The notes under the pieces were generated by a model. The model worked only from the letters and a program-made list of their open reading frames with translations. It was not told the origin of the DNA and did not search any database. 64,000 nucleotides of DNA from an uncultured Chitinophagales bacterium (GTDB taxonomy: Bacteria > Bacteroidota > Bacteroidia > Chitinophagales > BACL12). The stretch's first letter is position 1. Each line of letters begins with the position of its first letter. The translations under genes and the position numbers were made by a program. Positions 23,257-63,096 of the stretch are shown here, piece by piece. The stretch covers positions 13,957 to 77,956 of the forward strand of contig CAYXBK010000015.1 in the NCBI GenBank assembly GCA_964463165.1. The letters are read 5' to 3'.

Positions 23257-26200
23257 ATGCGTCAATTGCAAACTTTGATTACAACAATTTTTATTTTTTT
23301 ATCAACGCTGATTTCTGCGCAAAACGGCAAGATCGTTTCTGATGCTTTTAACAGACCTGCTTATGCATACCGTAGTGCAGAAAATCCATATTACTGGAAA
23401 AACAGAAAACCATACGACGGATACTGGCAACAGGATGTGGAATATAAAATTTCTGCAGAAATCGATGAAACAACAAATATTATTTCAGGAACAGTGCGCC
23501 TCACATATTATAATAATTCACCCGATGCATTGCCTTTCGTTTATTTTCATTTATATCAGGAGGCATTTTTACCCGGTGGATATGTGGAAGATCTGTATAA
23601 AGTAAATGACGTAAAACCCACATTCGGCAAATACGAATCGCAAGGACTCGGAACGGAAGTGGAAAATATTACGATCACAAACAGAAACGGATTCCCTGTT
23701 TCGGAAACTGCAACTCTCATACAGGATTTTTCCGTTTTAAAAGCAGAATTAAAATATCCTGTTACGGCGGGTGGTTCAATTACATTTGAAATTCCTTTTA
23801 AAACATATTTCGATAATGAAGGAAGTTTAAGAAGAAGGATGAAGGAATTCAGTTCGGGTGAATTCATGCATTATGACGGTGTGCATTGGTATCCCCGCAT
23901 TTGTGTGTACGATATGAAATTCGGATGGGATACCGAACAACATCTTGGAAAAGAATTTTATGGTGATTACGGCAGCTATGAAGTTGATCTCACCTTTGCG
24001 AGTAATTATATTGTTGAAGCAACAGGTTATTTACTGAATGCAAATGAAGTGATGCCGAACAGCCTGCGTGAAAAATTAAATATTAAAAATTTTGCGGGCA
24101 AAGCGTGGAATGAACCTGCATCTGTAATTATTCCTTATGTGCAGGGAGATAAAAAAACATGGCGGTATTATGCTGAAAATGTGCATGATTTTGCATTTAC
24201 TGCAGACCCTTCTTACCGCATCGGTGAAACAATGACTGTTATAAACGGGAAACAGGTGCGCTGTATCGCATTGGCACAGGAAGGACATGCTGCCTTCTGG
24301 CAAAATGCCGCTGATTATACTGCTAAAGTGATTCATGTTTACAGCAATGATTTTGGTGATTATATCTGGCCGAAAATTATTGTCGCAGATGCACGGGATG
24401 GAATGGAATATCCGATGCTTACGCTTGATGGCGGATACGATCCCTCCTACCGCGATTTATTCGCACATGAAATCGGACATATGTGGTTTTTCGGTATGGT
24501 TGGAAATAATGAAACATACCGTGCAGCTCTTGATGAAGGGTTTTCTCAATTTCTCACGGCATGGTCGTATATGAAAATAGATGGAGATGTGCGGATTGAA
24601 TTTGAAGATAAATCGAATTATAAAAATACATATCGCAAGCCCGATGAAATCATCATGAGCGAAGTGTATTCTGCGTATTTACAGGATGCAGTGAGAGCGA
24701 ACGATATGCCTTTGAACACACATTCAGATATGTTCAATTCTGCACTTGCACATGGCGGCGGATACAGGCATGTTTACTTTAAAACCGCAGTGATGCTGTA
24801 TAATCTTGAATATGTTTTAGGCGATGATTTATTTGAAGCTGCGATGAAACATTATTTTGAGCAATGGAAATTATGCCATCCGTATTTTGAAGATTTCAGA
24901 AATTCAATTATAAATTATACCCATGTTGATCTCAACTGGTTTTTTGATGCTTGGCTCGAAACAACAAAAAATATTGATTATGGTATAAGTGAAGTGCGCA
25001 AAAATCCGGAATTCTCTCTCGATGGCCAGCCACTTTTGCATTACGATGTTTTATTCAAGCGCAAAGGCATGCAAATGCCCGTTGATTTCCAGGTGGTTTT
25101 GGAAAACGGAGACACACTCAATTACTATATCCCGAATACATGGTTCAATAAATATGAAGGGCAAAAAAATATTTCCGAAGGAAGGCTCGACAGAACATAT
25201 TTTGAAAATGTGATCGTGTTGCCGAAATGGTATGGATTCGACAAACTGGAATCGGAATATGTTGCGCATGTAATTGTGCCAGCGAAAATAAAACAGATCA
25301 CGATCGATCCGAGCAACAGGCTTGCAGACATCAATAAACTTGATAATACATGGAAATGCTCGATTGATTATGAATTTGATTCACAGATACGCAATACCGC
25401 CAACTGGAATCAATATGCCTTAAAATGGCGGCCCGAAATCTGGGGAAATGCATATGACGGATTAAAAGTAGGACTGCATTTCAACGGAAATTATTTTAAT
25501 TACAAACATATGTTCGAATTTACTGCCTGGTTCAACACCGGTATATTGCAATCCGATTATTATCATCCGCTGAATTCTTCCGGCGATGATATTACCGACG
25601 ATTTCGATCCGTTTTCTTTTCACCTGTCTTATAAAACAGCAACTGATAATTTTTTACCGAGAAGTAATTTTTTATTCGATACGAAATATCTCGATGGTGT
25701 ATTCGGATTTAAGATCGGAGAAGAAATTTTTCTCGACCGCGACTTCAGGAATAAGATCACATTTTATTTTAATGATTTTCAAATTGTAAAAAATCAGTAT
25801 CTCTTATACGGCGATTTAATTGATGAAGCAAAAAACAATTCCTTCAACCTGGAATACGAACATAAGTATAATTATTTCAAAGGCAACGGAAAATTCATGC
25901 TTGGCTTCCGTTCAAATGATCTATTGAGTGATTATGATTTTTCGCGGGTGCAGGTAGAAGCAATAAATAATACCACACTTGGAAAATTCGATTTAAAAAC
26001 AAGATATTTTTTACAATGGGGCAGCGGATCTTCCATTCCTTTTGCATCCTCACTCATGCTGGCAGGTGCGAATGCCGAAGAATTACTCGACAGTAAATTC
26101 ACACGTTCACGGGGTTTTGTTCCAAATGAATGGACAACATTCGGAAACACAACAAATCATTTTCAAATGGGCGGCGGATTAAATCTGCGGGGATATTCCG

Positions 26201-26577
26201 GTTATCTTGTTGCCGAGGAAAATGAAGACGGAACAATTTATCTCGCATATTCTGGTGTGAGCGGTACTTCAGCAAATATTGAACTTGAATTCGACCGTTT
26301 ATTTAATTTCAAAATCATTAAATTCATTAAAATGGATCCCTACGTTTTTGCAGACGGCGGAATTTTATCAGTTGATGAAGATTTTAAACAACTTTCTTCT
26401 TTCCGCATGGATGCCGGTATCGGCACTGCATTTACATGGAGTTGGTTCGGCCCGCTCGAAACCGTTAAACCCATAACTTTAAGAATTGATTTTCCCGTCT
26501 GGCTGAGCAATGCACCATTTGAGGAAAGTGAGAATTTTAAATTCAGGTATGTAATCGGATTGAACAGGTGTTTTTAG
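23257..26577 (+). CDS. M1-family zinc metallopeptidase with C-terminal Omp85-like beta-barrel region
   Basis: 1106 aa with a signal peptide. The gluzincin motif HEIGH (24466-24480) plus Glu 19 residues later (HEXXH-X18-E) defines the peptidase. The C-terminal ~400 aa shows alternating beta-strand patterns, GGGLNLRGY (26169-26195), and ends ...FRYVIGLNRCF with a terminal Phe, as OMP beta-signals do. Confidence 0.85.
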   Translation: MRQLQTLITTIFIFLSTLISAQNGKIVSDAFNRPAYAYRSAENPYYWKNRKPYDGYWQQDVEYKISAEIDETTNIISGTVRLTYYNNSPDALPFVYFHLYQEAFLPGGYVEDLYKVNDVKPTFGKYESQGLGTEVENITITNRNGFPVSETATLIQDFSVLKAELKYPVTAGGSITFEIPFKTYFDNEGSLRRRMKEFSSGEFMHYDGVHWYPRICVYDMKFGWDTEQHLGKEFYGDYGSYEVDLTFASNYIVEATGYLLNANEVMPNSLREKLNIKNFAGKAWNEPASVIIPYVQGDKKTWRYYAENVHDFAFTADPSYRIGETMTVINGKQVRCIALAQEGHAAFWQNAADYTAKVIHVYSNDFGDYIWPKIIVADARDGMEYPMLTLDGGYDPSYRDLFAHEIGHMWFFGMVGNNETYRAALDEGFSQFLTAWSYMKIDGDVRIEFEDKSNYKNTYRKPDEIIMSEVYSAYLQDAVRANDMPLNTHSDMFNSALAHGGGYRHVYFKTAVMLYNLEYVLGDDLFEAAMKHYFEQWKLCHPYFEDFRNSIINYTHVDLNWFFDAWLETTKNIDYGISEVRKNPEFSLDGQPLLHYDVLFKRKGMQMPVDFQVVLENGDTLNYYIPNTWFNKYEGQKNISEGRLDRTYFENVIVLPKWYGFDKLESEYVAHVIVPAKIKQITIDPSNRLADINKLDNTWKCSIDYEFDSQIRNTANWNQYALKWRPEIWGNAYDGLKVGLHFNGNYFNYKHMFEFTAWFNTGILQSDYYHPLNSSGDDITDDFDPFSFHLSYKTATDNFLPRSNFLFDTKYLDGVFGFKIGEEIFLDRDFRNKITFYFNDFQIVKNQYLLYGDLIDEAKNNSFNLEYEHKYNYFKGNGKFMLGFRSNDLLSDYDFSRVQVEAINNTTLGKFDLKTRYFLQWGSGSSIPFASSLMLAGANAEELLDSKFTRSRGFVPNEWTTFGNTTNHFQMGGGLNLRGYSGYLVAEENEDGTIYLAYSGVSGTSANIELEFDRLFNFKIIKFIKMDPYVFADGGILSVDEDFKQLSSFRMDAGIGTAFTWSWFGPLETVKPITLRIDFPVWLSNAPFEESENFKFRYVIGLNRCF

Positions 26578-26712
26578 AATTGCGAATTGCGGATTGAGCA
26601 AAATTGCGAATTGGGGCTTTCTTGATTTAAGAAAATTTTGGAAAATAATAGCACTTTCGATTTAAGAACATACTGTAATTGCGAATTGCGGATTGAGCAA
26701 AATTGCGCATTG
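26578..26712 (+). repeat. Left arms of nested inverted repeat (two 36-nt units, 99-nt period)
   Basis: AATTGCGAATTGCGGATTGAGCAAAATTGCGAATTG occurs at 26578-26613, starting on the base after the peptidase stop codon. It recurs at 26677-26712 with one mismatch. The unit itself has a 7-nt periodicity. Confidence 0.9.
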
Positions 26713-26850
26713 AAATCCGAGTAAAGTTTCAAGCTTTGGGTTCATTTAATTGCTTTAATTATTTAATTGAAATTTGATAATTAGTTTATTCTTTTGTTTC
26801 CATTTATTGTTGAATTAATGTAAATTCGCAAGTAATTAAACCCCTTATTT

Positions 26851-27216
26851 ATGACAGAAGAAGAGAAATTAAAAGCTCGCACAAAACAATTTGCTCTCAA
26901 TGTTATTAACATTGTCGAGCATCTTCCTAAATCAACTACAAATTATGTTTTAGGGAAACAACTTCTCAGATCAGCAACTTCGGTGGGTGCTAATTACAGA
27001 GCAGCATGCAGGGCAAGATCACATGCGGATTTTATTTCCAAAATAACTATTGTAGAAGACGAAGCAGATGAATCTCAATTTTGGATTGAAGTAATTATGG
27101 AGTCAGGAAACAGTGATGGTGATTTGGTAAAATCTTTGCGTCAGGAATCAAAAGAACTGACTGCAATTTTCACTTCATCAGGTAAAACTGCAAAAGAAAA
27201 TCGAATTAGGAAATAA
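26851..27216 (+). CDS. Four-helix-bundle protein (23S rRNA intervening-sequence protein / Avd-like family)
   Basis: 121 aa. GKQLLRSATSVGANYRAACRARSHADFISKITIVEDEADESQFWIEV is the signature of this family. Confidence 0.85.
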   Translation: MTEEEKLKARTKQFALNVINIVEHLPKSTTNYVLGKQLLRSATSVGANYRAACRARSHADFISKITIVEDEADESQFWIEVIMESGNSDGDLVKSLRQESKELTAIFTSSGKTAKENRIRK

Positions 27217-27286
27217 GGGATTCAATTCTCATAAAAATTTCATAAGCTTGATTTTTAACAGGAATTTATTTAAGGTCACGAAGCCT

Positions 27287-27429
27287 CAATTCGCAATTTT
27301 GTTCACTTCGCAATTCGCATTTTCCCTTCAGAATTTTCCAATGTAAATATAGTTTATTAATACCAGATAAATGCCCGCAGAAAGTCAGAGTTTCAATTCG
27401 CAATTTTGCTCAATCCGAAATTCGCAATT
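27287..27429 (+). repeat. Right arms of nested inverted repeat (reverse complements of the 36-nt unit)
   Basis: 27394-27429 (CAATTCGCAATTTTGCTCAATCCGAAATTCGCAATT) is the reverse complement of 26578-26613 with one mismatch, and ends 4 nt from the rsmG stop. 27287-27321 is a more diverged copy that pairs with 26677-26712. Confidence 0.9.
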
Positions 27430-27433
27430 CTCC

Positions 27434-28132
27434 TCAATCCATCGGCAAATAAATCAAAAACTTATCTGCAAACCAGGGTTCTTTAAACCATTCGATGATC
27501 GGGAACTTGTAGAGAATATCTTTAAATGGAGCAACTTCAAGTTCGAGATAACCACCTTTTAATGTAATTAATCCGTTCGGGAAATCATTAAATGAACCGC
27601 CACGTCGAACCATATTAATTGTCCAGTCATACAATATCATTAAATCCGCAACACCGCGAGCAAGTATAAAATCAAATTTTTCTTTGACATCTTCCACCCG
27701 GGTTTGCTCGCACGAAATATTTTGCAATCCCAATGCTTTTCCGATCATATCGGCAACACGCACTTTTTTTTCGATCGAATCGATGAGATGAAATTCAACT
27801 TCCGGATTCATAATTGCAAGCGGAATTCCCGGAAATCCGCCACCTGTTCCCAGATCAAGCACTTTTGTGCCCGGTTGAAATTCGATGAATTTTGAAATTG
27901 CGAGTGAATGCAATACATGATGCTCGTAAATATTATCGATATCCTGCCGCGAAACAACATTTACTTTTTCGTTCCAGAATTTAAATTGCGGCCCGATCTG
28001 CCTGAATTGGCTGATCTGCCTGTTGTCGAGATGGGGGAAATACTTTAATATACGGTCCACAGGAAACAATTTTAAAGATTTTCTTCCAAATTTCCTATTG
28101 GTTTCCCACAAAGGCATAAAGCTGCTTTGCAT
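27434..28132 (-). CDS. rsmG: 16S rRNA (guanine527-N7)-methyltransferase
   Basis: ILKYFPHL...FWNEKVNVVSRQDIDNIYEHHVLHSL...LDLGTGGGFPGIPLAI is the RsmG/GidB pattern with its SAM-binding motif. The true start may be GTG 28060 or ATG 28117 rather than 28132. Confidence 0.9.
   Translation of the reverse strand: MQSSFMPLWETNRKFGRKSLKLFPVDRILKYFPHLDNRQISQFRQIGPQFKFWNEKVNVVSRQDIDNIYEHHVLHSLAISKFIEFQPGTKVLDLGTGGGFPGIPLAIMNPEVEFHLIDSIEKKVRVADMIGKALGLQNISCEQTRVEDVKEKFDFILARGVADLMILYDWTINMVRRGGSFNDFPNGLITLKGGYLELEVAPFKDILYKFPIIEWFKEPWFADKFLIYLPMD
28101..28121 (-). promoter_or_regulatory. 21-nt motif copy A in the divergent rsmG / C1-peptidase region
   Basis: The minus strand reads CTTTATGCCTTTGTGGGAAAC, 40 nt upstream of the candidate GTG start of rsmG. 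Confidence 0.4.
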
Positions 28133-28315: not shown

Positions 28316-29887
28316 ATGCCTATTCGAATGGTTCCCGACAATAATCAGCAGCAGCAACGCAAAATTCCGGGCGGCGGCGGTGGCGGCACCGGCCGTGGTG
28401 GCGGCAATATCATCACGTTATTATTGCCTTTGTTTTTAGGCCTGTTCCGGAAAAATCCCAAACTCGGCTGCGGTATTTTAATTGTGGCTGCAATCGTGAT
28501 TTATTTTCTGGGCGGCAACCTGTTTAATTTCAGCGGCGGCGGAACCGATGCTTCCGGTGGTTTTGCAACAGGCGCAGATTTCGATCCGGAAAAATACGAT
28601 GCAACGGAAATATTTGAACCGCCTGTTACCGACAATAAAAAAAATCCATTGCCCGAAAGCGTTTCGCTTTTAAAATATGCGCCGGCAAGATTAAATCAGG
28701 GCCAGCAGGGTTCATGCGTTGGTTGGGGTTCTGCCTATGCGGCACGCACAATACTTGAAGCCGAACGCACCGGAAAAGATCCGAATTCAATTGCTTTCAG
28801 TCCGGCATATTTATATAATCAGATCGGGCTTGAAGGATGCCAGGGCGCATATATTCAAAATGCAATGGACGTGATGAAAAATCAGGGGCTGGTTTCACTG
28901 CGTGAATTTCCTTATTCGGATCAGGATTGCAGCAAGCAACCGAATTCATCGCAAAAACAACAGGCCTCTCAATTTAAAATGACCGGATTTAATCGCCTTA
29001 CACAGGGCGATGGCCAGGGAGTAAATAATGAAAAACTCGATCTTGTTGCCATCAAACAAAATCTTGCACAGGGTGCACCGGTTGTGATCGGTATGCTGGT
29101 GGGAGGAAGTTTTATGCAGCCGATGATGGGAAAAGATGTCTGGAACCCCACCAACGACGATCTCGATATGTATGGTTTCGGGGGGCATTGCATGTGCGTG
29201 ATCGGTTATGATGATTTTAAAGAAGGCGGCGCATTTCAGGTGATGAACAGCTGGGGATCGGAATGGGGAAATAATGGCGTTGCATGGATACCTTATAACG
29301 TATTCGATCATTTTGCTAAAGAAGCGTATGGTGTTTATCCGATGGGCTCTGCAGATAAACCATTATCAAATACTTTGTCTGTTGAATTCGGTTTGGTAGA
29401 TAATTCAAGTTCAAGAAATATTCCGCTCAAACAAAATGGAAACGGCGTATTTGAAACAAAATCACCGATTAAAAAAGGAACGAAATTTAAAATTCAGGTA
29501 ACTAATTCGCATGAATGTTATACGTATATTTTCGGAATGGAAACAGATAATTCATCATATGTTTTATTTCCATATACCGAAAAACATTCACCTTATTGCG
29601 GCATCACCGGCACACGCTTATTTCCGAAAGATTACAGCATGCAGGCAGATGAGATCGGCACAAAAGATTATATGGCGATTGTGGTAACCAAACAACCGCT
29701 CGATTATAAAGCACTCAACGATCTAATCAATAAACAAAGCGGCAGTTACGATCAGAAAATTAAATCCGCACTTGGTTCTCAATTAATTCAAAATGTAAAA
29801 TACAATCCGGGTGAAACAATCAGTTTCCAGAAAGATGCGGGCGCCGATGGTGCGGTGTTGATGGTAATTGAGGTGGATAAATTTTAG
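28316..29887 (+). CDS. Membrane-anchored papain-like (C1 family) cysteine peptidase with extra C-terminal domain
   Basis: 523 aa. A Gly-rich N-terminus precedes a TM helix. The catalytic residues appear in QGQQGSCVGWGSAY (Cys), GGHCMCVIGYDD (His) and VMNSWGSEWGNNG (Asn/Trp). The C-terminal ~170 aa is possibly DUF4384-like. Confidence 0.85.
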   Translation: MPIRMVPDNNQQQQRKIPGGGGGGTGRGGGNIITLLLPLFLGLFRKNPKLGCGILIVAAIVIYFLGGNLFNFSGGGTDASGGFATGADFDPEKYDATEIFEPPVTDNKKNPLPESVSLLKYAPARLNQGQQGSCVGWGSAYAARTILEAERTGKDPNSIAFSPAYLYNQIGLEGCQGAYIQNAMDVMKNQGLVSLREFPYSDQDCSKQPNSSQKQQASQFKMTGFNRLTQGDGQGVNNEKLDLVAIKQNLAQGAPVVIGMLVGGSFMQPMMGKDVWNPTNDDLDMYGFGGHCMCVIGYDDFKEGGAFQVMNSWGSEWGNNGVAWIPYNVFDHFAKEAYGVYPMGSADKPLSNTLSVEFGLVDNSSSRNIPLKQNGNGVFETKSPIKKGTKFKIQVTNSHECYTYIFGMETDNSSYVLFPYTEKHSPYCGITGTRLFPKDYSMQADEIGTKDYMAIVVTKQPLDYKALNDLINKQSGSYDQKIKSALGSQLIQNVKYNPGETISFQKDAGADGAVLMVIEVDKF

Positions 29888-29890
29888 AAG

Positions 29891-29924
29891 CAGGAGTCAG
29901 GAATCAGGAATCAGGAGTCAGGAT
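29891..29924 (+). repeat. Heptanucleotide tandem array (5 units)
   Basis: CAGGAGT CAGGAAT CAGGAAT CAGGAGT CAGGAT, beginning 4 nt after the peptidase stop codon. Confidence 0.9.
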
Positions 29925-53112: not shown

Positions 53113-53190
53113 CAGTCCGCAGTCCTCAGTCGCAGTTGGCAGTGGCGCAAGCGGACGTGAACACACGAACACGTGAACGCGTGTGCACAC
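53113..53190 (+). repeat. Low-complexity short-period repeat block between convergent genes
   Basis: CAGTCCG CAGTCCT CAGTCG CAGTTGG CAGTGGCG (53113-53147) is followed by GTGAACACAC GAACAC GTGAAC and the 10-nt palindrome GTGTGCACAC (53181-53190). GTCCGC (53115-53120) can pair with GCGGAC (53151-53156). Confidence 0.85.
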
Positions 53191-57605: not shown

Positions 57606-57616
57606 CTTTTTAAAAT

Positions 57617-57783
57617 AATTGCGAATTTCGAATTTGGAATCCTGTCCGCCGACGCCAGGCCATGCGCTGCGGCAGGCGGGTGCGAATTGAAATCTGATTT
57701 GTTGAATTAGCTAATTACTAAATATATTAATTTTATCATCAATTTTAAATTCGCAATTTTGCTCAATTCAAAATTCGCAATTC
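57617..57783. repeat. Gene-less copy of the AATTGCG-type inverted-repeat family, enclosing GC-rich hairpin core (copy B)
   Basis: Left arm: AATTGCGAATTTCGAATTTGG (57617-57637). GC core: 57645-57680. Right arm: AAATTCGCAATTTTGCTCAATTCAAAATTCGCAATTC (57747-57783). The right arm shares an exact 19-mer, ATTCGCAATTTTGCTCAAT, with 27396-27414. Confidence 0.85.
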
Positions 57784-59533: not shown

Positions 59534-61963
59534 ATGAAAAAATTATTTATCCTCCCCGTGAATTTATTTTTTGTGATTGCTACTTACGCCCAGACAAAAG
59601 TGGGTGGTATTGTGATGGATGGATCCACAAAAACACCAATTGAATTTGCTGCAGTTACGATATTAAAACCCGGCGACTCACTGATCATTACCGGTGCAAT
59701 TACCGACAATGAAGGAAAATTTCTGCTCACAGATATTAATCCCGGTACATATACGCTTCGTGTAAATTTTCTTGGCTATGATGATGCCGAAAAAAATATT
59801 GAGGTTGCTGCAGGTGCACCTTTTGTCGGGACCGGCCCCATAATGATGCAGCAGGGCACTTCGAATTTAGATGCGGTGAATATCACGGCGGATAAATCAT
59901 ATTTTCAAAACAGCATTGATAAAAAAGTGTATAATATCGAAAAGGATATTGTTGCATCAGGTGGCAATGCATCCGATGCACTGCAAACAATTCCGTCTGT
60001 TTCAATTGACATTGACGGAAATATCAGTTTAAGAGGCAGCCAGGGCGTTGTGATTTTTATTGATGGAAAACCTTCCGGCATTGTGGGTTCAAATATGAAT
60101 GCCATCCTTGAACAGATCCCTGCAGCAAATATTGAAAGTATCGAAGTGGTAACAAATCCATCTGCACGTTATGATGCCGAAGGCAGTTCGGGTATTATCA
60201 ATATTGTGATGAAGAAAAATAAAAAAGTAGGATTGAATGGAAATATAATGGCTGGTGTAACCACATCTCCGAAATATGAAACAGGCCTTTCTCTAAATTA
60301 CAGGAATAATAAAATCAATATTTATACAAATTACAGTTTATCACATGATGAACGAAGCGGATACGGTGAAAATTTCCGCAAGACATTTGAAGAAGATACA
60401 ACGTATTATTTTTCTTCGCTGAGCGACAACCTGAATACGGGCCTGACGAATATGCTGCGTGGCGGAATTGATTTTTATCTGAATGAAAAAAATACGATCG
60501 GGTTTACGGGTTCTTTTATGAAAAACAATTCAGACCGGAATGATGATGTGCACTATGCATTTCTGAATGAAGATTCAGTGCTCACTTCAACGAGCGACCG
60601 TTTAACCGCAAGTGAAACCGACGGAATGAATTATACCGCAGGAATAAATTACCGTAAAATATTTTCTTCCCCAAAACATGTATTAACTGCCGACGGGTAT
60701 TATTCATACGGAAATATGGATGATATCAGTAATTATGATGAACGGTTTTTTGATCCTTTACTTGTGCCGGTCGGATTGCCGTTGCTGCAAACAATTTCAA
60801 AACCGGGCACGAATAAAGATGCAAGTGCACAGATGGATTATGTGCAGCCTTTTAAAAATGGAAATCAATTTGAAACCGGTTTGAAATATTCGAAAGAAAT
60901 AAAAGACAATACCATTTATTCTGAAACATTCAGTGAAATTGAAAATGATTGGTTTCCCGACGATTCGATAAACAATCAGTTTATTTATGATGAAGATATT
61001 TTTGCCGCTTACGTGATCTGGAATTCAAGTATTGATAAATTCGGATATCAGATTGGATTGCGTGCCGAACAAACCTATACAAATTCAAATCTTGTCACCA
61101 CCGACGAATATTACGAACATAATTATTTCGGACTCTTTCCAAGTGCGCATGTTGCTTATAAATTCAATGAAGAAACCGAATTATCATTAAGCTACAGCCG
61201 TCGAATCGACCGTCCGAATTCATGGTTTTTAAATCCATTCCCTGATTATGGCGACCCTTACAGCCTGCGCATGGGTAATCCATTTCTTGAACCGGAATAT
61301 GAAAATTCATACGATCTTGAATTTGCAAAATCATTTAAAAAACATTCGTACAGCGGATCCATTTATTATCACCAGACACTCAATGAAATTTCTCCTTATA
61401 CCATTATCGATTCAAACGGAATTTCGCTCATGACTTTCCAGAATTATAATAATGAAGAGAAATACGGAGTGGAGGTCATTTCAAAAAATGAATTTTATAA
61501 ATGGTGGAATATGACCAGCACGTTTAATTTCAATCAGACTCTGGTAGATGCACAAAATCTGGAAACAGGATTGACAAATTCAACATTTAATTATACGATC
61601 CGTGTAATGTCGTTTTTCCAGGTATTGAAACAAACTGCGTTACAACTCACATTTAATTATTCGACACCATGGACATTTGCGCAAGGTGAATCCGAACCGG
61701 TGTATTTTCTGGATGCGGGTATCAAATCCGATTTTTTTCAAAACAGATTAAGTGTGAATCTCACTTTCAGCGATATTTTCGATACGAGAATATGGCAGGG
61801 TTATTCAGATGGTATTAATTTCCATTCCGATTATTCCCGCAAACGTGAATCGCAAATAGCAGGATTAAAGCTCACGTATAAATTCGGCCAGCAGGATGCT
61901 TTCAGAAAAAAAGGCGGAAGAATGGACGAGAATTATGATGGCGGCGGGTTTGATATGTTTTGA
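59534..61963 (+). CDS. TonB-dependent-receptor-like outer membrane protein
   Basis: 809 aa: signal peptide, CarboxypepD_reg-like N-domain (VGGIVMDGSTKTPIEFAAVTI), plug (DALQTIPSVSIDIDGNISLRGS), a long barrel, and a C-terminal ...GGGFDMF. Confidence 0.85.
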   Translation: MKKLFILPVNLFFVIATYAQTKVGGIVMDGSTKTPIEFAAVTILKPGDSLIITGAITDNEGKFLLTDINPGTYTLRVNFLGYDDAEKNIEVAAGAPFVGTGPIMMQQGTSNLDAVNITADKSYFQNSIDKKVYNIEKDIVASGGNASDALQTIPSVSIDIDGNISLRGSQGVVIFIDGKPSGIVGSNMNAILEQIPAANIESIEVVTNPSARYDAEGSSGIINIVMKKNKKVGLNGNIMAGVTTSPKYETGLSLNYRNNKINIYTNYSLSHDERSGYGENFRKTFEEDTTYYFSSLSDNLNTGLTNMLRGGIDFYLNEKNTIGFTGSFMKNNSDRNDDVHYAFLNEDSVLTSTSDRLTASETDGMNYTAGINYRKIFSSPKHVLTADGYYSYGNMDDISNYDERFFDPLLVPVGLPLLQTISKPGTNKDASAQMDYVQPFKNGNQFETGLKYSKEIKDNTIYSETFSEIENDWFPDDSINNQFIYDEDIFAAYVIWNSSIDKFGYQIGLRAEQTYTNSNLVTTDEYYEHNYFGLFPSAHVAYKFNEETELSLSYSRRIDRPNSWFLNPFPDYGDPYSLRMGNPFLEPEYENSYDLEFAKSFKKHSYSGSIYYHQTLNEISPYTIIDSNGISLMTFQNYNNEEKYGVEVISKNEFYKWWNMTSTFNFNQTLVDAQNLETGLTNSTFNYTIRVMSFFQVLKQTALQLTFNYSTPWTFAQGESEPVYFLDAGIKSDFFQNRLSVNLTFSDIFDTRIWQGYSDGINFHSDYSRKRESQIAGLKLTYKFGQQDAFRKKGGRMDENYDGGGFDMF

Positions 61964-61969
61964 GATATA

Positions 61970-62097
61970 GGCCACTGGCTACTGGCCGCTGGCTGCTGGC
62001 TTGTAAATAGTAACTAGTAACTAGTATCTAGTGGCTAGTGGCTAGCAGCCAGTAGCCAGTAGCCAGCAGCTAGCGGCTAGTGGCCAGCAGCCAGCAG
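61970..62097. repeat. 18-unit phase-perfect heptanucleotide array forming a long imperfect palindrome
   Basis: GGCCACT GGCTACT GGCCGCT GGCTGCT GGCTTGT AAATAGT AACTAGT AACTAGT ATCTAGT GGCTAGT GGCTAGC AGCCAGT AGCCAGT AGCCAGC AGCTAGC GGCTAGT GGCCAGC AGCCAGC. The left third is complementary to the right third. It lies between convergent genes and includes the last 6 codons and the stop of hemH. Confidence 0.9.
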
Positions 62098-63096
62098 ATC
62101 CACCAAACAATCCACAAACAACTCACTATCATTCAAACTCTCCACCAACGTAATTTTCTCACCGCCTTTGGATTTGAAAATTTCATTGTACTCCTCACCT
62201 ATTTCATATAAAGTTTCGAGACAATCGGCTACAAATGCCGGACTGAAAGCAAGTATTTTTTTTACACCTTTTTTTGCAAGTTCATCTATCACGAAATCAG
62301 AATAGGGTTTAATCCAGGGTGTTTTCCCGAGCCGCGATTGAAAACAAACAGTATATTTTTCTGCAGGAATATTTAATTGGGTCGCAATTAATCTTGCAGT
62401 ATCAAAACATTGTGCACGATAGCAAAGCTGATTTTTTTCGTGCAGCATATCGCAGCATGATTCGGTCAAACAATTATTTTGGGGAATGGATTTTGAAATT
62501 TGCCGTTCCGGCAATCCGTGGAAACTGAATAAAATATGGTCGTAATTTTCCGGCTGATGTTTTTTCCCGATTTCAGCGAATGCATTAATAAATAACGGAT
62601 GATTATGAAAACTTCCGGTAAAATGTATTTCGGGAATTGCAAGCCAGTTTTTTGTAATCTCCATTACTTTGTCGATCACCGAACCGTTGCTTGCGGATGC
62701 ATATTGCGGGAAAAGCGGAACAATAATAAATCTGCCGCAATTCTGATTGCGCAATGTATTTAATCCTTTTTCTATCGAAGGACTTTGATAGCGCATTGCA
62801 AGTTCAACGAGATAATCTCCGCCTAATTTATTTTGCAATTTTGCTTTTAACAGTTCGCTGTAAACCAGCAGGGGCGACCCTTTGTCTGTCCATATTTTTT
62901 TATACAAAGCGGCAGATTTTGGCGCACGGAAAGGTGCAATGATCCCACGCACCAATAAATTTCGTTGGAATGCGGGAATATCAATCACCCTTTTATCCAT
63001 TAAAAATTCGACGAGGTATTTTCTTACATCCGCAACTGCCGGAGAATCCGGAGTGCCCAGGTTGACCAGCAGTATACCTGTTTTAGATCGGTTCAT
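62077..63096 (-). CDS. hemH: Ferrochelatase
   Basis: 339 aa. GILLVNLGTPDSP...VRKYLVEFLMDKRVI...LFPQYASASNGS...FSFHGLP is the ferrochelatase pattern. Confidence 0.9.
   Translation of the reverse strand: MNRSKTGILLVNLGTPDSPAVADVRKYLVEFLMDKRVIDIPAFQRNLLVRGIIAPFRAPKSAALYKKIWTDKGSPLLVYSELLKAKLQNKLGGDYLVELAMRYQSPSIEKGLNTLRNQNCGRFIIVPLFPQYASASNGSVIDKVMEITKNWLAIPEIHFTGSFHNHPLFINAFAEIGKKHQPENYDHILFSFHGLPERQISKSIPQNNCLTESCCDMLHEKNQLCYRAQCFDTARLIATQLNIPAEKYTVCFQSRLGKTPWIKPYSDFVIDELAKKGVKKILAFSPAFVADCLETLYEIGEEYNEIFKSKGGEKITLVESLNDSELFVDCLVDLLAAGH

Follow-up and report, generated by a model that had tools for sequence, protein, structure and literature searches.

This study concerns an element at 26578-27433 of a 64,000-nt stretch of DNA (the window) from an uncultured Chitinophagales bacterium, contig CAYXBK010000015.1. 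The element occupies the full spacer from the stop codon of an M1 peptidase gene (23257-26577, + strand) to that of rsmG (27434-28132, - strand), and the two genes converge on it. Within it, a 36-nt unit (AATTGCGAATTGCGGATTGAGCAAAATTGCGAATTG) occurs four times, twice in forward and twice in reverse orientation, together with a gene for a 121-aa four-helix-bundle (FHB) protein (26851-27216, + strand), which is the only credible open reading frame (ORF) enclosed by the repeats. The unit is built of heptamers, and heptamer arrays were also found at nearly all of the other FHB loci examined.

Structure of the element

The 36-nt unit is made of the heptamers AATTGCG, AATTGCG and GATTGAG and then AATTGCG once more. 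The outer-left unit (A1, 26578-26613, + strand) is an exact copy, reads AATTGCG AATTGCG GATTGAG CAAAATTGCG AATTG and begins on the first base after the peptidase TAG. The inner-left unit (A2, 26677-26712, + strand) has one mismatch and contains the left recombination breakpoint described below. On the other side of the gene, the inner-right unit (A3, 27287-27322, - strand) has four mismatches, and the outer-right unit (A4, 27394-27429, - strand) has one and ends 4 nt from the rsmG stop at 27434. A preliminary description of this DNA had recognised the unit and placed three of its copies correctly; for the inner-right copy it had given 27287-27321 and about five mismatches, and it had overlooked both the heptamer make-up and the existence of copies without a gene. 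A 9-mer in the left spacer of the outer tier (s1, 26614-26676) is complementary to one in the right spacer (s2, 27323-27393), as was described; the right copy is at 27333-27341 as given, and the left copy is at 26638-26646, not at 26636-26644.

No shuffle of the window gave a match to the unit at three or fewer mismatches, and three such matches were observed. Tandem Repeats Finder (TRF) reported a period of 7 with 2.7-2.9 copies at 26577-26596 and at 26677-26695, that is, in both left units. The element shows the features of heptameric simple sequence repeats (SSRs), also called short tandemly repeated repetitive (STRR) sequences: 7-nt units in tandem, in an intergenic position, near a stop codon. 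The arrays here open on the base after the stop codon; where L022 or L051 has long, pure arrays, these are compound and short (L-numbers such as L006, L017 and L020 are labels of the comparison contigs and loci).

A1 and A4 are terminal inverted repeats, 97% complementary over 38 nt, and these outer arms are 780 nt apart. When 300-nt flanks were compared, the FHB gene alone among the window's 45 genes had a strong inverted repeat at its sides (score 52, z 16.7); for the remaining 44, z did not exceed 3.2. In the minimum-free-energy folds, outer units paired with outer and inner with inner on both strands (z -6.5 and -7.1), in agreement with the pairing first proposed, so that the ORF is enclosed by complementary stem-forming flanks. 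The sequences also hold an interleaved homology, of A1 plus its extension with A3 plus its extension and of A2 with A4. Since the extension of A1 is complementary to that of A3, an interleaved pairing is also possible; A1 plus 24 nt would pair with A3 plus 24 nt over 60 nt at 78%.

The FHB gene and its surroundings

The encoded protein matched TIGR02436 (87.6 bits, cut-off 24, E 5.8e-25) and PF05635 (63.3 bits, cut-off 33.8, E 2.9e-17), which was its sole Pfam match, and residues 6-117 of its 121 aa matched the pentameric Bacteroides structure PDB 2RLD (E 1.3e-19). These matches bear out the assignment of the protein to the 23S-IVS/Avd family, named after 23S rRNA intervening sequences (IVSs) and the Avd protein of diversity-generating retroelements. 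PADLOC and PHROGs gave no match for it. The family is large, with 9,851 clusters (50% identity) matching the FHB protein at E up to 0.001. We know of no role for FHB proteins outside diversity-generating retroelements. Judging from a long-term dN/dS (ratio of non-synonymous to synonymous substitution rates) of 0.10-0.13, the FHB gene is under purifying selection in the long term. Between the alleles of the window and of L017 (4776-5141), 10 of the 14 nucleotide differences change an amino acid (dN/dS 0.70), which could indicate relaxed or diversifying selection after transfer.

No Rfam family exceeded its threshold anywhere in the window, and the element is not an insertion in a 23S rRNA helix. 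Among the nine neighbouring proteins scanned (21.3-34.2 kb), which include DUF6962, DprA, C1 peptidase, FMN_bind_2 and TPR proteins, there was no reverse transcriptase, recombinase, transposase or invertase; the set is equal in the syntenic region of L056. The site is therefore neither rRNA nor part of a diversity-generating retroelement, as had been stated. The preliminary description had further suggested that the outer stem doubles as a bidirectional terminator. This was not borne out: no terminator-like site, in which a T run follows a short G+C-rich stem, was found in 26300-27700, and between the outer arms there are 780 nt. No sigma-70-like promoter signal stood out (6 found, 5.1 expected), and inspection of the leader by eye gave no clean instance of the Bacteroidota motif TAnnTTTG. 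The element is bounded by TTTTAG on the left and CTCCTCA on the right; no direct duplication was visible there, with the L056 empty-site spacer, which is unrelated in sequence, as the comparison.

Alleles at the same site in related genomes

The peptidase/rsmG site was compared in related genomes; the names borne by rsmG relatives point to a Chitinophagales-like host. In L017 and L018, whose rsmG product is 90.5% identical in amino acids to that of the window, the arrangement is window-like and has four units. In L020 and L021, two independent assemblies of a sister lineage with rsmG 97.8% identical to that of L017, the FHB gene at this site is reversed, there are three units and the leader is different; in L020 one inner unit is missing. 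In L067 (Chitinophagales, rsmG 75.5%) an FHB gene of 65% identity lies at the same site; either side of it has two small hairpins of the AATTGCG type, and there is an outer stem. In L056-L059, a related Chitinophagales lineage (rsmG 76%), the synteny of C1 peptidase, rsmG, M1 peptidase and dprA is kept and the spacer is a clean 58 nt with no repeats and no gene. Because of this empty site, the whole 26578-27433 stretch is lineage-specific. L060 has a peptidase/rsmG spacer of 520 nt with other heptamers and no FHB gene. In that spacer (L060 5730-6250), (ATAGGAC)n lies at one end and about 13 copies of CAGAACY lie at the other, with two or three copies of a module of about 45 nt (AATAATCGGATCGYAGCCCTGAAACTTTTGCTAAACATGTAAAC) in the middle.

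Divergence at synonymous sites (dS) was discordant between the FHB gene and its neighbour rsmG. Between the window and L017, dS was 0.80 for rsmG and 0.052 for the FHB gene; between L017 and L020 it was 0.27 and 0.79, respectively, and between the window and L020 it was 0.76 and 0.70. A sliding-window comparison of the window with L017 over 7 kb gave a background identity of 65-94%, typically about 83%, and the sole sustained run at or above 93% was 26723-27270, where identity was 93-98%. This run takes in the FHB gene (96.2%), most of the leader 5' of it (26713-26850, + strand, 94.9%) and most of the trailer 3' of it (27217-27286, + strand, 92.9%), whereas identity is 74.6% in s1 and 81.7% in s2. 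In A3 the AAGTGA variant is of the L017 type. The left outer tier, which comprises the peptidase end, A1, s1 and A2 up to its midpoint, has 98.7% identity between L017 and L020 and hence tracks the host lineage; divergence starts in the middle of A2, the sequences are unalignable beyond it, and the inner segment is 48% identical. The exchanged tract thus lies approximately between the inner repeats, with a right-hand breakpoint that is less sharp than the left. The L020 allele has 83% nucleotide identity to the allele in the window orientation, and the leaders are unrelated save for about 30 nt before the start codon.

At the level of sequence, these comparisons demonstrate that the inner tier and the FHB gene have passed between lineages separately from the genes on either side and can lie in either orientation. 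The empty site, the inverted allele and the dS discordance agree with the earlier proposal of a self-contained mobile cassette. The simplest reading is that the L020 allele is native to its clade and that L017 is a recent recipient of a window-type cassette, which would have entered the opposite way round. A further small feature was seen in L020 at about 1826-1843, where an 18-nt near-palindrome (TCCCGATAACTATCAGGA) lies in the middle of a unit downstream of the inverted FHB allele and looks like a very small insertion.

Copies of the repeat without a gene

The repeat family also occurs without an FHB gene. An element at 57606-57782 of the window, flanked by genes for an M42 peptidase and a carboxyl transferase, includes a copy of the unit with four mismatches (57747-57782), folds into a hairpin with two tiers (-52.3 kcal/mol, z -3.85) and has subterminal stretches in common with the FHB cassettes. 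In the metagenome contigs L006, L012, L013 and L014, related units (AATTGCGGATTGCGGATTGAGCAAAATTGCGGATT) lie right after stop codons with no FHB gene near, often as inverted pairs with loops of 10-40 nt. In representative-genome contigs, a search with the repeat core gave only three single matches, which look like chance. The insertion at the peptidase/rsmG site is, on these alignments, shown to be lineage-specific and the repeat to be present elsewhere without the gene. The window has further FHB-less heptamer arrays, different in sequence, at 29887-29923, 53113-53136 and 61970-62097.

Heptamer arms at other FHB loci

About 30 other FHB loci were drawn from search matches, and about 27 of them are embedded in heptamer arrays, usually complementary between the two sides. 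The heptamer-armed loci are among L022-L032, L037-L055 and L062-L072 and belong to Bacteroidota, Cyanobacteriota, Chloroflexota, Spirochaetota, Bacillota and Ignavibacteria, plus unplaced G+C-rich contigs. Sites in Bacteroidota and Ignavibacteria include nrdA/nrdB (L022-L031), RNase R/polyprenyl synthase in Flavisolibacter tropicus (L032), ABC transporter/MFS transporter (L062), nuoD/nuoH (L065) and L068. Annotated plasmids contributed loci from Planktothrix, Bernardetia, Chlorohelix (two), Nostoc (several), Gloeocapsa, Pseudanabaena, Treponema, Chondrinema, Euhalothece, Monoglobus (a pseudogene), Dolichospermum, Aulosira and Anabaena, and IMG/VR contributed L037, L039, L040 and L042. Scans of viral contigs gave six FHB loci only, and a phage collection gave two distant, atypical matches. 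The arms differ in sequence from locus to locus; the pairs include (TTTTAGA)n/(TCTAAAA)n, (AATTCGC)n/(GCGAATT)n, (GTCGGAG)n/(CTCCGAC)n and (CCAGTGA)n/(TCACTGG)n, the last with 13 copies. At about a quarter of the FHB loci a complete hairpin lies on each side instead of one stem around the gene.

Several measures agree with this picture. A lag of 7 was the top period in 17 of 21 FHB loci, and the flanking inverted repeat exceeded z 3.2 in 16 of 21 when 150-nt flanks were used. A search for inverted repeats with an 8-nt seed found none at L022, L026, L027 and L032, although the arms there are visibly of the complementary type, imperfectly so. The predicted RNA duplex between the flanks had z below -3 in 13 of 19 FHB loci; this RNAduplex calculation took flanks of 100 nt and missed arms lying further out, such as those of L020 and the window. 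On the same contigs, the median lag-7 score was 16/21 for spacers adjoining FHB genes and 10/21 for other spacers (p 1.3e-9). The preliminary description had named a lack of flanking inverted repeats in other family members as a refutation; nearly all of those examined have them. The more alike two FHB proteins are, the more alike their heptamers tend to be (Spearman 0.43, Mantel p 2e-4), so the arms seem to travel or co-evolve with the gene. As read from these contigs, it is shown that heptamer arms flank nearly all FHB relatives examined, in several phyla, and that arm sequence tracks the phylogeny of the gene.

Traces of the arrays were also found in the proteins themselves. Of the 72 FHB homologues whose called ORF extends at least 8 residues beyond the core, 31 end in NPQSAIRNPK-like peptides, that is, in arrays read as protein, and 8 of the 33 with an N-terminal overrun have RIADCGL-like peptides at the N-terminus. 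Arrays also vary in length around one gene: ten contigs with an identical FHB protein (L022-L031) have an upstream spacer of about 89-263 nt and a downstream spacer of 63-535 nt to the nrdB start. The downstream array of these contigs has a higher-order period of 37 nt.

By our own count, the FHB gene has the orientation of its upstream neighbour in 19 of 24 cases. It lies inside co-directional operons (nrdA/nrdB, nuoD/nuoH, RND adaptor/permease and hsdS/hsdR) and at defence loci, next to cas1 (L048), at cas2/cas1 (L072), at hsdS/hsdR and at drmD/MmeI; twice it lies between a DUF1156 gene and a Swt1-HEPN gene. In the latter two loci, on plasmids of Chlorohelix (L045, Chloroflexota) and Gloeocapsa (L047, Cyanobacteriota), a block of DUF1156, FHB and Swt1-family HEPN genes is common to both, with arms of the GATTTTA/GATTTTG type. 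Because both block and arm type are shared, the FHB cassette appears to have travelled with the operon. On the Monoglobus plasmid (L052, hsdS/hsdR), an unannotated FHB pseudogene interrupted by stop codons keeps the complementary arms AATTAGGAATGAGGA and TCCTCATT..AATTCCTAATT.

Discussion

We consider it likely that the element is an accessory FHB gene cassette between inverted heptamer-built arms, nested in an older hairpin of the same repeat family. Exchange would proceed by homologous recombination through the arms, and because the arms are mutually reverse-complementary, an incoming cassette could integrate either way round. Array length may change through replication slippage. The cassette might be transcribed by read-through from the upstream gene, and in the RNA the arms would then pair as a long stem; by analogy with the IVSs of 23S rRNA, RNase III may cut this stem, which would free the cassette RNA from the host transcript.

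Several points weigh against this interpretation. At this locus, transcription by read-through, pairing of the arms as a stem and cutting by RNase III are putative, and none of the nine neighbouring proteins scanned (21.3-34.2 kb) is a mobility enzyme. The low dS and the conserved leader and trailer could instead reflect constraint at the nucleotide level, which fails, however, to explain the inverted and divergent allele of L020. About one third of the FHB loci are without a simple stem, having either a hairpin on each side or weakly complementary arms, and the distant relatives L073 and L074 (32% identity) are without typical arrays. Host base composition may inflate the correlation between arms and protein. 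In addition, no near-identical cassette was seen at two loci, and P0017 and P0087 each occurred in one context in all contigs read, so movement between sites would be slow or absent on short timescales.

It is conceivable that the FHB ORF homes into the loops of native heptamer hairpins that existed before it, the arms being its target and not part of the element. Gene-less hairpins do outnumber filled ones; in Xanthomonas campestris pv. campestris, 186 repeat sites with 70 convergent pairs are reported (PMC4692102). The IVSs of rRNA are likewise located in hairpin loops (PMC4990558), and the outer tier at the window locus is host-like. Homing is nevertheless rather unlikely, since arm sequence correlates with FHB identity across phyla, the inner arms lie within the exchanged tract and the empty site of L056 is clean of any hairpin. 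Alternatively, the stem may be a transcript-end structure, a terminator or stabiliser, shared by the two converging genes, with the FHB gene as a passenger. That the arms adjoin both stop codons, and that gene-less hairpins of this repeat family lie just after stop codons, would fit such a structure. The lack of any terminator-like site in 26300-27700, the 780 nt between the outer arms and the many FHB cassettes inside co-directional operons, where termination would be harmful, make this explanation quite improbable.

Two further explanations appear very improbable indeed. A common intergenic repeat, of the repetitive extragenic palindromic (REP) type or the miniature inverted-repeat transposable element (MITE) type, might surround an unrelated small gene by coincidence, and the unit does occur without the gene at 57606-57782 and in L006, L012, L013 and L014, as do FHB-less heptamer arrays at the three other places in the window. 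Coincidence would hardly produce heptamer arms at about 27 of 30 FHB loci in several phyla, nor their absence from the non-FHB spacers of the same contigs (p 1.3e-9), a flanking inverted repeat at only one of 45 window genes, or arm sequence that follows FHB phylogeny. The other of the two, with an equally slight chance of being right, takes the inverted repeats for invertase sites at which the gene is flipped for phase variation. Both orientations of the gene are indeed found between the same flanks, but the two differ in 17% of their nucleotides (dS 0.79), their leaders are unrelated save for the last 30 nt or so before the start codon, L020 is one inner unit short, no invertase or recombinase was present among the neighbouring proteins scanned, and in either orientation the FHB gene lies downstream of a converging gene.

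The cassette that we favour resembles several known systems. In the 23S rRNA IVSs of Leptospira and Coxiella burnetii, a gene of the same protein family lies in the loop of a long stem formed by complementary flanks, and horizontal acquisition has been inferred for those IVSs. In the Coxiella IVS, the S23p ORF is directly preceded by GACAGAT heptamers, two to three in tandem, which vary from strain to strain, and RNase III cleaves at the first heptamer repeat (PMC4990558). The host of the present element is the spacer of protein genes instead of rRNA helix 25 or 45, its arms are compound 36-nt units with two on each side, and its cleavage is putative. The arrangement thus appears to be an IVS-like stem-loop cassette outside rRNA, widespread and apparently undescribed. 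With Avd of diversity-generating retroelements the protein shares a homologous four-helix-bundle fold and family (PMC10053308); unlike Avd systems, the locus has no reverse transcriptase among the neighbours scanned, and no search was aimed at template or variable repeats.

Heptameric intergenic repeats have reportedly been on record since 1990, from the STRR work on Calothrix. Rehm et al. described heptamer arrays near stop codons, GGGAATC in Xanthomonas and GGGGATT in Nostoc, often in convergent pairs and of function not known (PMC4692102). The present arrays are like these SSRs (STRR, GGGAATC, GGGGATT) in the 7-nt period, in lying within about 50 nt of stop codons, in convergent pairs that form inverted repeats and in length variation between close strains; the difference is that in those reports the arrays were not tied to FHB genes, and that the heptamers here are organised into a 36-nt unit. 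The supplementary table of that paper lists a GGGAATC array between XCC0517 and XCC0516, overlapping the start of XCC0516, on which the paper does not comment (PMC4692102). XCC0516 is the FHB protein of Xanthomonas whose crystal structure defined the fold. No paper that connects FHB genes with heptamer repeats came up in our full-text search; its coverage was incomplete, and the result is hence no proof of novelty.

REPINs and RAYTs (REP doublets forming hairpins and REP-associated tyrosine transposases) are a further parallel, in that one gene lies between inverted repeat copies and the repeat is also dispersed as gene-less intergenic hairpins. The gene here, however, encodes a 121-aa helical bundle and not an HUH/Y1 transposase, and FHB paralogues are numerous, with a separate type of heptamer at each locus. 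MITEs such as the Correia elements of Neisseria are small, intergenic, bounded by inverted repeats and co-transcribed with their neighbours, and in 'minimal mobile elements' cassettes are replaced by recombination at a fixed site between conserved genes. The present element has in common with these its small size and intergenic position, its terminal inverted repeats and the replacement of a cassette between conserved genes. It differs from MITEs in its conserved ORF, which makes it other than non-coding, and in its heptamer-array arms; no target-site duplication is visible at its ends. The gene-less copy at 57606-57782 would fit the non-coding definition of a MITE.

A broader proposal is that FHB proteins and heptameric tandem repeats form one system, in which the protein would bind, copy or recombine its own 7-nt arms, the cassettes would spread into intergenic spacers, operons and rRNA hairpins, and gene-less arrays such as the cyanobacterial STRR sequences and the Xanthomonas GGGAATC arrays would be products or remnants. 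We regard this as speculative and doubtful, and that the FHB protein binds its own heptamer arms is a guess. If the broader proposal were true, it would account for an excess of heptameric repeats that has long been noted in the genomes of bacteria, and the FHB family would gain a function.

The main significance of this study is that heptameric repeats, which have been recorded without explanation, are generally linked to a large family of orphan proteins. If the link holds genome-wide, rRNA intervening sequences, standalone FHB genes in operons and defence loci, and heptamer arrays become one testable subject. The cassettes place long potential double-stranded RNA stems into the nrdAB, nuo and accBC operons and into restriction loci as well as clustered regularly interspaced short palindromic repeat (CRISPR) loci. 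In two surveys of CRISPR systems, 23S_rRNA_IVP genes are listed within cas loci (PMC3936711; PMC10910872), and that FHB genes were scored as CRISPR-associated may be due in part to the repeat arrays of these genes or to their settling inside operons.

Additional features of the window

The arrays at 29887-29923, (GAATCAG)5, and at 53113-53136, (CAGTCCG)3.6, begin at or after the stop codons of unrelated genes and have no obvious complementary partner. The array at 61970-62097 is a hairpin in which (GGCTACT/GGCCACT)n precedes the complementary (AGTAGCC/AGCAGCC)n; it lies between the converging gene 59534-61963 and the ferrochelatase gene, and it extends into the final codons of the latter's ORF (62077-63096, - strand). 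Within the gene-less element, a G+C-rich hairpin at 57641-57680 (CCTGTCCGCCGACGCCAGGCCATGCGCTGCGGCAGGCGGG) breaks the left arm, in a spacer otherwise rich in A+T, and resembles a small insertion. The longest ORF of rsmG encodes 232 aa, against 208 aa in most relatives; translation probably starts about 24 codons 3' of the first ATG.

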